A stretch of 64,000 nucleotides of DNA, from IMG/VR virus record IMGVR_UViG_3300033463_000004, positions 160,001-224,000 of that record; one strand, 5' to 3'. The stretch's first letter is position 1. Each line of letters opens with the position of its first letter. Both the position numbers and the translations under genes were made by a program. A model generated the notes under the pieces. The model saw only the letters and a program-made list of their open reading frames with translations. It did no database searches and was not told where the DNA came from. Shown here piece by piece: positions 58,447 through 62,922 of the stretch. The stretch comes from a virus (taxonomy: Duplodnaviria; Caudoviricetes).

Positions 58447-59796
58447 ATGGCTGTCAAGAAAAAACAACAAACACCTCTGGAAGAAGATCTCAATAAGCTT
58501 GATTTTATGACAATTATTTCCGGTGGTGGATCATCCAGAGTATTCTCCAAGAATACGTTAATTGATTATTCATATTCAACAGGTATTCCGATTATTGATT
58601 ATGCTTTGGGATACGAGGTAAATGTATTTGATGGAGATACGTTCGTTAAGAAACGTACATGTTTGGGTCTTCAAGCAGGTTCATTCAATGTTGTTACAGG
58701 ACGTACGCAGGCATATAAGACAACAATCTGTATCAAGATTATTGCCGAAATTGCATACAAGTATGGTGGAAACATCGTGCATTATGATGCTGAACAGAGA
58801 CTTGTATTACAACGTGCAAAGAATCTTTCGAAACTTCCCGGTGATTGGTTTACCGGAGAATATCCGAGATATTCTTTGCGTTCTGGTGCAATTGGTTTTG
58901 ATACATTGCAGAATGATATTGCGGAAATTTATTCTGCGAAAATGCAGAATAAACAATATCTGTTACAAGATACCGGTGAAGTAGACGATCAGAATAAACC
59001 CATCAAATTGATGCCACCAACTGTTGTATTCTTAGATTCACTTCAGGATGTTATTGAAAAAGAATATAATGTTGATGATAAGAAATGGGTTGAAGATTCG
59101 AAAGAGCTTCGTGGTAATATGTATGGAGCACAATCTGCAAAAACAATCCGTGGTCTGTTGACAGATATTCTACCTATGCTGAAAGAGGCAAATATCATTC
59201 TAATCGCAATTGCACACAAGACATCCAATATGTCTCTGAATCCGTTTGCTGGTGTGAAGAAACAATTCCAGTATGGCGCAAATGATGAAAGAATCTCCGG
59301 TGGTTCTGCAGTTGAATTTAATGCATCTTCTGTTCTGAACTTCTCTGGATTGGTATCGGAAGATTCCCGTTATCATGAAGCACAAGATGGTTTCGAAGGA
59401 AACACCGTTCTGTTTGAACCGACAAAGTGTTCGACAAATGAGTCTGGTAACGTAAAGACTGGACTTGGATTCAATATCATCATTGACAAACGACGTGAAG
59501 GTGTTGACAATATTCGAACACTCATCGAGTATCTCAGACAAAAAGGAAGACTTAAAGGAAATAAAGCAGGTTTCCGTGTCATTGATGATAAGGGTGAACC
59601 TATCTCAGAGAAGTTTACTTGGAAAACATGTTACAATGATTTCAAGGAAGATCCAGCTTCTTATAAAACATTTATGATGGTTGCACGTGAAGAGTTGGAA
59701 AAACTCATTGCGAAAGCAGATGTAGATGTGATGGGAACAATCAAACCATTTTCAATGGATGATATCATTAATGATCTAGAAACTGTTAATGGGTAA
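58447..59796 (+). CDS. uvsX: UvsX/RecA-like recombinase
   Basis: STGIPIIDYALG, Walker A variant GRTQAYKTT, YDAEQ, Walker B VFLDSL, GGSAVEF. Confidence 0.85.
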   Translation: MAVKKKQQTPLEEDLNKLDFMTIISGGGSSRVFSKNTLIDYSYSTGIPIIDYALGYEVNVFDGDTFVKKRTCLGLQAGSFNVVTGRTQAYKTTICIKIIAEIAYKYGGNIVHYDAEQRLVLQRAKNLSKLPGDWFTGEYPRYSLRSGAIGFDTLQNDIAEIYSAKMQNKQYLLQDTGEVDDQNKPIKLMPPTVVFLDSLQDVIEKEYNVDDKKWVEDSKELRGNMYGAQSAKTIRGLLTDILPMLKEANIILIAIAHKTSNMSLNPFAGVKKQFQYGANDERISGGSAVEFNASSVLNFSGLVSEDSRYHEAQDGFEGNTVLFEPTKCSTNESGNVKTGLGFNIIIDKRREGVDNIRTLIEYLRQKGRLKGNKAGFRVIDDKGEPISEKFTWKTCYNDFKEDPASYKTFMMVAREELEKLIAKADVDVMGTIKPFSMDDIINDLETVNG

Positions 59797-59802
59797 TTAA
59801 AT

Positions 59803-60426
59803 ATGATATGTTACAATAATATCCCAACTATCAGATTTCAAAAGACACATGGGCAATACCCAATCGTATTTGCGATTCTAATAACAGCTGGAACTGTTTT
59901 ATTCATTTTGGGATGCATTATATTTAGCACCCCAAAAGAATATACTGTTAAAGCAAAAAGTATTCATTGGCAATATGATATTCATATTGATGAATTAAAA
60001 CAATTTCATGAATCTGGATGGTCATCACCACCTGAAGGGGCATATAATATTGAAAGTTATCGTAAATACAAAGGACAGAAAAAAGTTGGTGACATAACAA
60101 TTCCAGATTATGATGATTGGTATGAATACGATATTGACAAATGGCGTGAGACAAGAGTTGTGACAACGCAAGGATATGACAAAGAACCTTATTGGGGTGA
60201 ATACACTCTCCGTAGCACAGAAAATGAACGTGGAATTGGTAATGAGCGTGCTATAAGAAAAATAACAACGTATACAGTATACGGTCAATTACTAAATTCA
60301 GATAAAACTGATTTGATTCCTCTCGAAGTTGATGAATATATCTGGAAGAATATTACGGTCAATGATGAGTTGAATTATAAGAAAAGACTCGCTGGAAAAC
60401 CTTATGCAATCAGCTTAGCTGAATAA
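59803..60426 (+). CDS. membrane-anchored hypothetical protein
   Basis: N-terminal TM helix IVFAILITAGTVLFILGCIIF. Confidence 0.65.
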   Translation: MICYNNIPTIRFQKTHGQYPIVFAILITAGTVLFILGCIIFSTPKEYTVKAKSIHWQYDIHIDELKQFHESGWSSPPEGAYNIESYRKYKGQKKVGDITIPDYDDWYEYDIDKWRETRVVTTQGYDKEPYWGEYTLRSTENERGIGNERAIRKITTYTVYGQLLNSDKTDLIPLEVDEYIWKNITVNDELNYKKRLAGKPYAISLAE

Positions 60427-60428
60427 AA

Positions 60429-60461
60429 AATAAATGGGCGGGGATGTCCCCGCCCATTTAT
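60429..60461. terminator. terminator
   Basis: ATAAATGGGCGGGGA-TG-TCCCCGCCCATTTAT. Confidence 0.75.
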
Positions 60462-60473
60462 CATTTTTTTATA

Positions 60474-60515
60474 AAAAAAGAGAGATGTCGATGCGACACA
60501 ACATCTCTCTTTTTT
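60474..60515 (-). terminator. terminator closing the ncRNA operon (bidirectional)
   Basis: A7-GAGAGATGT...ACATCTCTC-T6. Confidence 0.7.
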
Positions 60516-60516
60516 C

Positions 60517-60871
60517 ATTTCCAGATCTTGTGGACATGGCATCGGAACAATACCAGATAGCTGAACATATTTACTCGGACGTCCACGTTACCTTTCAATA
60601 TCTATCTGATACCATGAACCTCAAGGATTCGTTTCCACCAATAATTGGAATGATCTGATGGTCAGTGCTAGCCCTAACCATTGATGGTTGCCAACCCATC
60701 TTTCCAATTTTGATGTCTCCTCCAAACACACGCCACATGTTGGAGGCCCGCTGTTCATTTATATCCCGCATCGACAGCCGGCGGACAGTAAATACATTGA
60801 ACGAACCAAGCAATGTATCTACCGTGACGGAATTGGGGTAGCTTGATTCCAGGATAGCCAGTCCTGGAAAT
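60517..60871 (-). ncRNA. candidate large (~350 nt) multi-domain structured RNA
   Basis: terminal ATTTCCAG/CTGGAAAT pairing and at least 6 helices; G-U pairs form only on the minus strand; no RBS-led ORF; followed by a terminator. Confidence 0.65.
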
Positions 60872-60880
60872 ACAAACATC

Positions 60881-61297
60881 TCAGAGATCAAAGAGTTGTG
60901 CCAACTCTTTGGCCTCTTGGCGCGATGTTTTATTATGGTTAAATCGGGTTATGCTTCCCTTTTTTAACCACGGCTTTAGTTTCCATGCTTTGTTCCTTGG
61001 AACATGGAAACTTATTTGTCTTCGTGTTCCATCGACTTTTATGTCGAAGAACACCAAGACACATCTGAAACCGTTTTGGTCTTTGCCCGGTTTCAGATAA
61101 TAATAGATCCCGCACGGAGGAACGGAATCTATCATTTTTAATGTATCAACCAGAATGTCTTCTTTATGTCGATATCTGGTTGATACCAAATTGTCCCGAT
61201 GCAGATGAACATCATAAATATTCTTACCTGCATCGGAACAGGCTTGAGCAAGACAGATTCTCCGTAAAATCTGTCTTGTCATTTTGGTTTGTGCCAT
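60881..61297 (-). CDS. small basic protein (QISFHVP motif), possible RNA-binding partner
   Basis: 138 aa, K/R-rich, AAAGGAGGTG RBS; layout loosely YkyB-like. Confidence 0.7.
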   Translation of the reverse strand: MAQTKMTRQILRRICLAQACSDAGKNIYDVHLHRDNLVSTRYRHKEDILVDTLKMIDSVPPCGIYYYLKPGKDQNGFRCVLVFFDIKVDGTRRQISFHVPRNKAWKLKPWLKKGSITRFNHNKTSRQEAKELAQLFDL

Positions 61298-61346
61298 TAT
61301 GATGACACCTCCTTTATCTAATTCTAATAAGAGTATTACATCATTC

Positions 61347-62126
61347 TCATGAGTATTGTTTCAGGCGGTTATCCCATGTCTGTGCGGTCTCTAATGCATT
61401 GGTACGCATCGTTTCCACTGCATCCCAGATATCTCCGGAAAATGCTTCGTTGCCGATGATTTGTCTCGCAAGACTCTCATCTGATGAAGCGATCGCTTCA
61501 TCACACGATTTGACTACAGCGATCGCAGCAGCCTTAGCATCATATGCCAACTGCTTGAGTTCACGCAGTTTCTCACCATATTGATTGTTCATCACATCGA
61601 CTGATGTGCCGTCCTCAAGTACGCGTTTCAGGCTAAGACACTCCCAGTCAAATTTGCCATACTCTTCATCGCGGCGGGGTCCATATCCTCTGGTACGGCC
61701 ACAATTCAGTGCTGCTTTCACAGCATTGAGAGCAATGTCGGTATAACATACAAATGTTATCCGACATTTGCAACCTGCCGGAATGACTTCAGCTCTCATT
61801 GTATCATGCGATAGGTCTTCCGACTCAAATGTTACGACATCCGGTGCTTTACCGGATTCGATCGGAATCCGTCTCTCTTCAATGAAGACTTCGTCGCTGA
61901 TATCGCGATAGATGCTCGTGCAGCCACGGCACTGCTTCTTTACATAGCCGATCCAGCCATAGGACTGGAGCACGGGTTGGTTGTTATTGTCTCTCATAAA
62001 CTGTCTTGTGTAATCGTCAGTGGTAGGGGTTTCATTGAGTAAGTGTGCATAATCAGCCGGTGCACTCGAAGCAACCAGATCCGTTATAAACGTAATGCAG
62101 GCTGTCAGAATATATTTTTCTTTCAT
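61347..62126 (-). CDS. stand-alone Cas7/RAMP-like protein with helical C-terminal extension
   Basis: ITFITDL (first strand), FMRD..QPVL...GYVK, VFIEERRIPI, EVIPAG, C-terminal G-loop G..RGYGPRR.EEYGKFDW. Confidence 0.65.
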   Translation of the reverse strand: MKEKYILTACITFITDLVASSAPADYAHLLNETPTTDDYTRQFMRDNNNQPVLQSYGWIGYVKKQCRGCTSIYRDISDEVFIEERRIPIESGKAPDVVTFESEDLSHDTMRAEVIPAGCKCRITFVCYTDIALNAVKAALNCGRTRGYGPRRDEEYGKFDWECLSLKRVLEDGTSVDVMNNQYGEKLRELKQLAYDAKAAAIAVVKSCDEAIASSDESLARQIIGNEAFSGDIWDAVETMRTNALETAQTWDNRLKQYS

Positions 62127-62225
62127 GGGTTTCCTCACTTTCTCCCGCTGTGCGGGTTGCGACGGCGTTAAGCTTTTACGCCGTCTATTATTTATTTTCT
62201 TTGAATATTAGATAATACTATCTTC

Positions 62226-62255
62226 TATTCATAATAATAATATATATATGAAAAT
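62226..62255 (-). promoter_or_regulatory. putative early promoter driving the RAMP operon
   Basis: identical to 14515-14544. Confidence 0.65.
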
Positions 62256-62268
62256 TGTGATTCTAAAA

Positions 62269-62290
62269 ATGGGGCGCATATGCGCCCCAT
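62269..62290 (-). terminator. terminator
   Basis: ATGGGGCGCATATGCGCCCCAT with T-run on the minus strand. Confidence 0.75.
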
Positions 62291-62298
62291 ATCTATCA

Positions 62299-62922
62299 TT
62301 ATTTGTCGTTTTCCATGAGACTACCTTCAAATTCATTTGTTAATGAAATTATTGTGTCCAGCCATTCAATAAACATCGCAGCATTTTCTGAAGACAATAA
62401 TTCATTAAAAAGTGCTTTGGCGTCATCAGCGGTAAATTTAATACGATATAATTCACCACTCGGAATATCAGAATATCGTTTCGCCATAAAATCTTCTGTA
62501 TACTGATTAAATGTGTCTGGATCAAATGTTATTTTTTTACAGGTTTGACCATTATTCATGCCCAACGAAATATCGATATACAGCTGAACAATATCATCAT
62601 TCAATTTCGGAGAATCCATGAAATTGAATGTATAATCGATTTGCACTGTCATATCATAAAGAACACCGTTATCAGATACCCAACAATCTGCAAAAGTATC
62701 AAAGAGTTGACAACCTTCTTTCAATGTTACAGTCATTGCATCATTTGTATAGATCGGAACATCAACAATCTGAGTTTGTTCATCATAATATTCAAACTCA
62801 GTATTAGATATCAATTTCTTTGTTGCTACATCAAATTTGTCAATCGTTTCATGAATCTTTTCTTTGAGTGCCTGCATTTGTTTGATGCCTTTGTCAAAAT
62901 TGTTTGACCATATTTCATTCAT
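62299..62922 (-). CDS. acidic hypothetical protein
   Basis: AAAGGAG RBS. Confidence 0.65.
   Translation of the reverse strand: MNEIWSNNFDKGIKQMQALKEKIHETIDKFDVATKKLISNTEFEYYDEQTQIVDVPIYTNDAMTVTLKEGCQLFDTFADCWVSDNGVLYDMTVQIDYTFNFMDSPKLNDDIVQLYIDISLGMNNGQTCKKITFDPDTFNQYTEDFMAKRYSDIPSGELYRIKFTADDAKALFNELLSSENAAMFIEWLDTIISLTNEFEGSLMENDK

Follow-up and report, generated by a model that had tools for sequence, protein, structure and literature searches.

The 64,000-nt stretch analysed here (hereafter, the window) covers bases 160001-224000 of the IMG/VR virus record IMGVR_UViG_3300033463_000004. The record measures 262,694 bp and is estimated to be 98% complete, and therefore represents a jumbo phage. 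Two gene sets converge at the locus of interest. On the plus strand a UvsX-like recombinase gene precedes an open reading frame (ORF) of 207 aa; on the minus strand a NAD-dependent DNA-ligase-like gene is followed by ORFs of 207, 263 and 138 aa. The interval that separates the stop codon of this last, 138-aa ORF from an intrinsic terminator is filled by an element of about 365 nt (Table 1), which an earlier note, made from the letters of the sequence, had described as an ornate, unassigned non-coding RNA. A perfect bidirectional terminator, serving both the RNA unit and the convergent gene, lies beyond the first, and the RNA has thus two terminators in series. No terminator separates the 138-aa gene from the RNA, and both RNA and protein occur once in the 262.7-kb genome. 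The finding is larger than had been described: protein-plus-RNA cassettes of this kind recur in uncultured phages, and the RNA belongs to one of them.

Table 1. Features of the RNA locus, in window coordinates; helices are given as 5' strand / 3' strand of the RNA
Feature	Position	Strand	Description
UvsX-like recombinase	58447-59796	plus	phrog_97
207-aa ORF	59803-60426	plus	convergent to the RNA
Bidirectional terminator	60429-60462	both	GGGCGGGG/CCCCGCCC core
Intrinsic terminator ending the RNA	60473-60509	minus	GAGAGAUGU...ACAUCUCUC then U7; stem 60509-60480, U-tract 60479-60473
RNA body, ~365 nt	60517-60880	minus	begins right past the stop codon and stops just short of the terminator; minimum free energy -139.9 kcal/mol, z -3.84
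Closing helix of the multibranch core	60519-60832	minus	UUCCG (60832-60828)/UGGAA (60523-60519); in minimum free energy and centroid folds
P6, long irregular hairpin	60526-60625	minus	CAUGGUAUC (60616-60608) / GAUGCCAUG (60543-60535)
P6 inner helix	60607-60602 / 60560-60555	minus	AGAUAG/CUAUCU
PK2, pairing within P6	60586-60581 / 60535-60530	minus	GUGGAC complementary to GUCCAC
P5, three-way junction	60636-60715	minus	AAUUGGAA (60709-60702) / UUCCAAUU (60650-60643)
P5 inner helices		minus	GAUGG/CCAUC (60700-60696 / 60687-60683); AUGGUUAG/CUGACCAU (60681-60674 / 60665-60658)
P4, hairpin	60719-60746	minus	CCUCCAA (60746-60740)/UUGGAGG (60725-60719), then conserved AGA
PK1, candidate H-type pseudoknot	60750-60784	minus	S1 CCGC (60784-60781)/GCGG (60769-60766); S2 GCUGU (60778-60774)/ACAGC (60754-60750)
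P2, 15-bp hairpin, 11-nt loop	60785-60825	minus	ACGGUAGAUACAUUG (60825-60811) / CAAUGUAUUUACUGU (60799-60785)
P1, 5' hairpin	60841-60877	minus	UUCCAGGA (60869-60862) / UCCUGGAA (60854-60847), on a GUUUG/CAAGC base
138-aa protein gene (P0002)	60881-61297	minus	isoelectric point 9.9, net charge +13

Folding is much more stable on the minus than on the plus strand, and the strand preference is therefore real. The minimum free energy (MFE) of the minus strand, -139.9 kcal/mol, was equalled by none of 100 dinucleotide shuffles folded with RNAfold, and compares with -110.7 kcal/mol (z -2.0) for the plus strand. The earlier note had stated that G-U pairs favour the minus strand, and the folding energies agree. 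Three A-U to G-U changes in a close relative, L015, retain pairing on the minus strand only. All the helices it listed are found at their places by direct reading, and RNAfold recovers nearly all of them. The MFE fold is made of the 5' hairpin P1 and a five-branch core including P2, a CCG...CGG/GCUGU...ACAGC element, P4, P5 and P6. The helix closing the core shows, among the relatives, no sequence variation that could test the pairing. P1 is nearly unchanged in L015, where a single base-stem change (G60873 to A) is found; at its position L030 features a different 12-bp hairpin, and L029 no hairpin. It had also been proposed that the 5' end is switchable. UUUCCAG (60870-60864) is complementary in sequence to CUGGAAA (60524-60518); the putative switch between local and 3' pairing, for which this complementarity is the only basis, is not supported.

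L015 is a 13-kb Logan contig encoding a relative of P0002, the 138-aa protein, 96% identical to it, with the same RNA behind the gene. The two RNAs differ at 19 alignment columns (94.8% identity), and the neighbouring genes are 94.7-97.1% identical. A 181-nt core (60629-60809), which includes the loop and the 3' strand of P2, PK1, P4 and P5, has no substitutions, while the flanking genes differ by 3-5%. We estimate the chance of finding such a core unchanged at about 2e-4, given a divergence of about 4.5%. The P6 arm (about 110 nt) is the fast-evolving part of the RNA, and carries about 14 changes. Among the changes seen in L015 is one true compensatory replacement, A-U to G-C, within the pseudoknot GUGGAC/GUCCAC (PK2) suspected in the earlier note; the three lowest (basal) pairs of a CAUGG/CCAUG stem in P6 are broken, and this weakens that helix. 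The RNA is under selective constraint.

The same comparison bears on whether the region may be a small protein gene, encoded by the 98-aa frame at 60595-60891 or by another, or a gene in decay in which structure has arisen by chance. A frame of 98 open codons does exist, and on one occasion a gene caller predicted a 94-aa product from it. Yet the frame, the translation of which the earlier note had regarded as fatal to the RNA, is interrupted in L015 by a 1-nt deletion, and its product, compared with 1.84 billion representatives, returned only itself and one spurious match of 32 residues. No gene is called in the region in L015, L030 and other relatives, the core is invariant while its flanks show synonymous-type drift, and compensatory base changes are found in the homologs described below. 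The region shows no coding potential, and this is the least credible of the explanations considered. Two candidate mini-ORFs, starting with the AUG at 60518-60516 and with an AUG inside the terminator, were rejected as neither has a proper Shine-Dalgarno (SD) sequence; the frame of the former is moreover changed by a 1-nt insertion in L015. The use of an alternative genetic code was likewise rejected, as large ORFs are intact under table 11, and the proteins of the family stop at the same C-terminal position by TAA, TAG or TGA.

More distant homologs of the RNA were sought by a covariance model of the 112-nt 5' domain (P2, S2 and P4), built from the window and L015 only on the structure of the window itself. 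Both strands of 196 kb of sequence, loci and controls together, were searched. The sole further full-length match (E 2.4e-5) resides at L030:557-682, directly 3' of the stop codon of P0058, a protein 44% identical to P0002. A second model, in which L030 had been added, retrieved L029:997-1099 (E 4.7e-5), where every modelled pair is standard. This match too lies directly 3' of a stop codon, that of P0039, a homolog of the 138-aa protein. Both E-values come from models blind to the sequences found. In the alignment of the four sequences (window, L015, L030, L029) 98.1% of the cells pair, and 100% in P4, against an average of 76% in shuffles and 31-52% in controls slid by 1-3 columns. Two-sided compensatory changes occur over three lineages in 16 of the 27 modelled pairs (7/15 in P2, 3/5 in S2, 6/7 in P4), values reached by none of 500 shuffles. 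Covariation among homologs, which had been set as a check on the prediction, is thus present. Outside the modelled domain the elements follow one another in all three lineages in one order, namely P4, AGA, the P5 hairpin and GRAAC. The three-way junction found in the window at P5 is replaced in L030 and L029 by a simple hairpin. A GUGGN...N'CCAC pairing, recognized by eye, also seems to be maintained, the fifth pair being A-U in the window, G-C in L015, G-U in L030 and C-G in L029.

A sequence pattern for the pseudoknot region, GTCCGC-N10-12-ATGCGG-N-ATATAAA, had no match in IMG/VR. Its 13 matches in metagenome contigs were discarded as chance, the protein family being found near none of them. 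Five of the 13 fall in a coding repeat, VVREH(S/P)DAEYKYR (L038-L042, L046; contigs of one sample), the apparent covariation of which is codon drift, and recommend caution in pattern-based searches for RNAs.

PK1, in which CCGC/GCGG combines with GCUGU/ACAGC, is a second candidate pseudoknot, absent from the list of helices given in the earlier note. In the window, L030 and L029 alike, S1 is formed by two unvarying, complementary strands, CCGC and (A)UGCGG. The loop of S1 holds the 5' strand of S2, the partner of which comes after an A-rich linker of 11-12 nt (GAUAUAAAUGA joins the stems in the window), and the topology is of the H-type. The same topology is made by other sequences early in the RNAs of other clades, as in GAGG/CCUC with GCUG/CAGC, GGAG/CUCC with GCUGU/ACAGC, GAGCC/GGCUC with AAGAG/CUCUU, and GUCUU/GAGAC with GCGU/ACGC. 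A UAAA-anchored scanner detected it in seven lineages, and at 3-6% of 1,238 anchors in control DNA. The motif was defined after seeing the data, and is therefore supportive, not decisive. When the pseudoknot region was aligned across clades with MAFFT, the sequences fell out of register, and no cross-clade covariance model was obtained. Other clades have conserved folds of their own: RNAalifold reports nine compensated pairs and none broken in L047/L049, and three compensated pairs in L018/L022. The regions downstream of the gene that were folded are unusually stable, with z-scores of -6.2 in L016, -3.9 in L029 and -3.0 in L030.

The succession of gene and RNA recurs across the protein family. 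Genomic context was taken for 19 lineages, 18 of which were scanned for terminators. After the gene, 17 of the 19 feature 215-510 nt devoid of called genes and of ORFs of at least 60 aa (more than 1 kb in L023 and L064), and of the 18 regions scanned 12 yielded a terminator. In many relatives the 3' end hosts AAGGAG(G), a strong signal of Shine-Dalgarno type, followed 5-9 nt later by AUG and by 0-12 codons that stop inside the terminator or next to it. Such SD-mini-ORFs have been identified in L016 (780-830), L027, L047 (2140-2175), L049, L050, L052, L054, L018, L022, L023, L064 and L065, and are reduced to a bare start-stop in L016, L027 and L050 (AUG-UGA and AUG-UAA in L016/L027). In L047/L049 the GGAG and CCAAUG segments take part in conserved helices, and one of these helices closes the RNA as a whole.

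These signals are the main support for a different explanation, by which the RNA is a cis-acting structured 3' untranslated region of the 138-aa gene, stabilising the mRNA or tuning translation or termination, and not a partner acting in trans. In one variant, the binding of ribosomes at the SD-mini-ORF would remodel the fold or the terminator. The hypothesis is compatible with the lack of a terminator between gene and RNA, and with the placement of GGAG and CCAAUG within conserved helices. However, neither the window nor L030 has a convincing SD-mini-ORF, a 365-nt multi-domain fold with two pseudoknots far exceeds the needs of known 3' stabilisers, and there is nothing downstream to regulate, as two terminators and then a convergent gene follow. 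A purely cis-acting role is for these reasons considered unlikely.

Two observations on single loci may be added. The first 21 bases of L016, a 915-bp Logan contig, correspond to the Nextera/Tn5 mosaic-end adapter (AGATGTGTATAAGAGACAG), and the first bases of the contig are therefore not biological. In L017 (1-680) and L062 (743-1500) about 700 nt of AT-rich DNA, with no called gene and no ORF larger than about 40 aa, lie upstream of the family gene, and the segment L017:200-690 folds with a z-score of -2.5.

The gene of the 138-aa protein has a strong SD sequence of its own (AAAGGAGG), and a promoter-like site at 61350-61321. A profile search gathered 71 proteins of 117-168 aa, none of which has a Pfam domain. 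The family is basic (median isoelectric point 9.4), and is marked by the motifs AQxxSDAGK, Y..K, IVYF, QISFHxP and RWD..SR. Ser21, Asp22, Lys25, Tyr42, Lys45 and Phe84 are invariant, His98 nearly so; the conservation of polar residues suggests that the protein could be an enzyme. P0002 matches no family in Pfam or PHROG. The AlphaFold model obtained from a 68-sequence alignment is of high quality by its scores (predicted local distance difference test, pLDDT, 92; predicted template modelling score, pTM, 0.88), and found no match in the PDB, whether searched by Foldseek (best E 0.04) or, exhaustively across 48,161 chains, by VIA-align (best Z 4.6), nor in BFVD by Foldseek or in the ESM Atlas (best template modelling score 0.42). 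The family profile had no matches among PDB sequences.

A kinship with YkyB/Kre was followed through Pfam, two YkyB genes and hhalign, and was not supported. Three of 68 members match PF14177 below its cut-off of 28.4 bits (best E 0.014), P0002 does not match it, and hhalign against one YkyB sequence, used in place of a YkyB profile, gave a probability of 0.2%. Language-model neighbours include PBECR2 and PBECR3 nuclease clusters at 0.80-0.81, which is within the range of chance and provides a lead only. Pfam matched no PBECR family even when E-values up to 1 were admitted, and Barnase, EndoU, colicin E5/D and RelE chains were absent from the fold lists. ToxN, AbiQ and CptN were matched neither in Pfam nor in PADLOC nor by fold, though absence from the fold lists cannot exclude a remote relation. 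In PADLOC, the best match (E 0.002) concerned a single member of the family. The links both to RNase-type folds and to Kre/YkyB are too weak for an assignment.

By analogy with toxin-antitoxin (TA) pairs, the basic protein might be a small RNase-type effector, which the RNA would inactivate or direct. The basic character of the protein and the invariant Ser, Asp, Lys, Tyr and Lys residues, along with the nearly invariant His, would fit such a role. Pointing the same way are the PBECR2/PBECR3 lead and the faint resemblance to YkyB/Kre, which lowers comK mRNA stability (PMC4482431). On the other hand the RNA comes after the gene, not before it, and has no tandem repeats: Tandem Repeats Finder returned none over 60400-61350 at a minimum score of 30. 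PBECR, Barnase, RelE and EndoU were not met in Pfam, PDB or fold searches, and the hhalign and PADLOC results reported above are no more favourable. A TA-like pair is a distinctly improbable explanation of the locus.

The RNA belongs to no described RNA family. Rfam 15 gave no matches at gathering thresholds over the whole window, and none in 18 related loci of the family; the match to a known family that the earlier note had named as a refutation was thus not found. When E-values were used instead, the terminators and the 3' end next to them (60350-60624) drew matches, every one scoring far below gathering; within the RNA body nothing did better than an E-value of 9.8, and that match lies on the plus, hence wrong, strand. 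ARAGORN found neither tRNA nor transfer-messenger RNA (tmRNA) in the window. The case against tmRNA, RNase P and group I introns, originally argued from the lack of hallmark motifs, is borne out by the models.

It may still be argued that the RNA is a diverged representative of a known class overlooked by the models, such as a group I intron remnant, an RNase P-like or tmRNA-like RNA, a riboswitch, or an omega RNA or reRNA. Its size and ornate fold overlap with those of such classes, and several riboswitch aptamers are built in a way that recalls an H-type pseudoknot whose loop is rich in A. However, in addition to the negative Rfam and ARAGORN results, no group I or group II intron model matches, and there are no flanking exons to join: the upstream ORF ends in a C-terminus typical of the family, and two terminators and a convergent gene come downstream. 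A riboswitch would be expected to precede a gene, but the RNA is 3' of one, and only the terminators and the convergent gene come after it. No gene for TnpB, IscB or a reverse transcriptase was found near the RNA in Pfam and PHROG scans, and the ORFs neighbouring the 138-aa gene (263, 207 and 207 aa) have no RuvC-type nuclease domains. A diverged known class is very improbable.

The stretch between the UvsX and ligase genes (59797-62300 in the window, compared with L002-L006) is a hypervariable accessory region, in which the set of small ORFs differs in each related jumbo phage. RNA and protein are both absent from four of five such phages, and no copy of the RNA was found, at the syntenic site or elsewhere, in the five jumbo phages with UvsX-like proteins 64-93% identical to that of the window. 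The RNA had no blastn match in 50,697 phage records, and peptide-pattern searches of IMG/VR, in which only two neighbouring proteins were used, found nothing. The 263-aa ORF (61347-62138, minus strand), which has the 207-aa ORF on one side and the 138-aa gene on the other, is lacking from L015, otherwise 95-96% identical; about 1 kb of the window corresponds there to about 300 nt. The ORF has no Pfam match and faintly resembles a PHROG of unknown function only, and looks like a recent insertion or deletion.

In light of the data above, the locus very probably encodes a real, conserved and unassigned structured RNA coupled to the gene family of the 138-aa protein. The fuller statement, that this is a new class of phage RNA, genetically coupled to a new protein and acting with it as a ribonucleoprotein, is favoured with a confidence only somewhat better than even. 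Gene and RNA would be made from one transcript, and RNA and protein would then act together. The conserved core, from P2 through PK1 and P4 to P5, may be the binding platform of the protein, or its substrate, and the fast-evolving P6 arm would face outward as the variable part. Counter-defence, RNA processing, or the control of an RNase-like protein are candidate roles for such a particle.

Several points weigh against the ribonucleoprotein hypothesis or restrict it. Binding of the protein to the RNA is entirely inferred. The clade of L017 (684-1055) and L062 (1501-1911) has no downstream RNA, and a terminator directly follows the stop codon; the two genes lie in contexts of bacterial type, beside a sortase gene and in a Clostridia metagenome-assembled genome from a Hadza gut sample. 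A 272-aa fused form with an N-terminal extension, found in a distant jumbo phage (G005; L069:1159-1977), has no RNA either. Since members without RNA exist, the protein is not strictly dependent on a cis-encoded RNA. As to the RNA, the modelled 5' domain is common to only three independent lineages. A third covariance model, made from all four sequences and run with filters off, found no other clade, and retrieved outside the clade of the window long generic hairpins only. The modelled domain is thus specific to that clade, and the case for homology among the RNAs of the entire family is built on position, on size and on a pseudoknot motif recognized post hoc. The alignment on which pairs were counted had been fitted to the model, and leans towards structure. 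Finally, when compared to L015, the RNA taken as a whole is conserved no better than the neighbouring genes.

A bolder extension of the ribonucleoprotein hypothesis may be formulated, which we regard as rather doubtful. A basic protein of new fold, possibly catalytic, would sit on a pseudoknotted scaffold RNA, the invariant core of which would bind it, and the fast-evolving P6 arm would recognise a variable target of the host or of rival phages. Self-contained and lodged in variable regions, the cassette would provide numerous phages of gut and rumen with an RNA-directed accessory weapon or a counter-defence device.

New defence and counter-defence systems come chiefly from the accessory regions of phages, and RNA-protein modules from such regions, among them CRISPR, retrons, TnpB/IscB and type III TA systems have repeatedly become tools. 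Neither partner described in this work has a relative in Rfam, Pfam, the PDB, BFVD or the ESM Atlas, and their pairing recurs in at least 17 diverged lineages from different metagenomes. To the few large structured RNAs of phages is added a class supported by covariation, with a defined protein context. One protein of 138 aa and one RNA of 365 nt provide a cheap and concrete experimental entry to what is possibly a new kind of ribonucleoprotein.

The cassette shares single traits with various known systems. The Kre/YkyB protein of Bacillus subtilis (PF14177) is similar in size, in the order of helices and strands and in an F-H-x-P motif, and differs in the search results discussed above. To our knowledge Kre has no RNA partner. 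It has been listed among candidate factors interacting with small RNAs in a study of the RNA-binding proteome (bioRxiv 10.1101/2025.03.21.644579). RNase P, in which a basic protein of about 120-140 aa, RnpA, is combined with a pseudoknotted RNA of about 350 nt, is comparable in composition. Unlike RNase P, however, the RNA of the window has neither an Rfam match to that family nor its conserved sequence blocks, and P0002 has no match to the RnpA (Ribonuclease_P) Pfam family. The large ornate RNAs GOLLD, ROOL and HEARO, and OLE as a size class, are likewise long, multi-domain, pseudoknotted, of unknown or emerging function, and often found in phages or prophages. In contrast to them, the RNA described here has no Rfam match; it is smaller than GOLLD and ROOL, and while these form RNA-only assemblies, it is tied to one small protein gene. 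The reRNA of TnpB and the omega RNA of IscB are, in turn, structured RNAs located immediately 3' of the gene of their protein. Beside such RNAs, however, a RuvC-type nuclease gene of about 400 aa or more would be expected, whereas the protein of the cassette measures 138 aa and has no detected RuvC, HNH or other nuclease domain; moreover, the cassette has no transposon ends and no apparent guide segment, and has its own terminator. In type III TA systems (ToxIN, CptIN, TenpIN) the RNA lies upstream, and consists of short tandem repeats cut by the toxin, whereas here it is downstream, and makes a non-repetitive multi-domain fold; P0002, in addition, matches neither ToxN nor AbiEii-type proteins. 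Common to the type III systems and to the cassette are a small gene for a basic protein set beside a dedicated, terminator-ended non-coding RNA, the residence in mobile or phage DNA and, as proposed here, a protein-RNA complex as the plausible working form.

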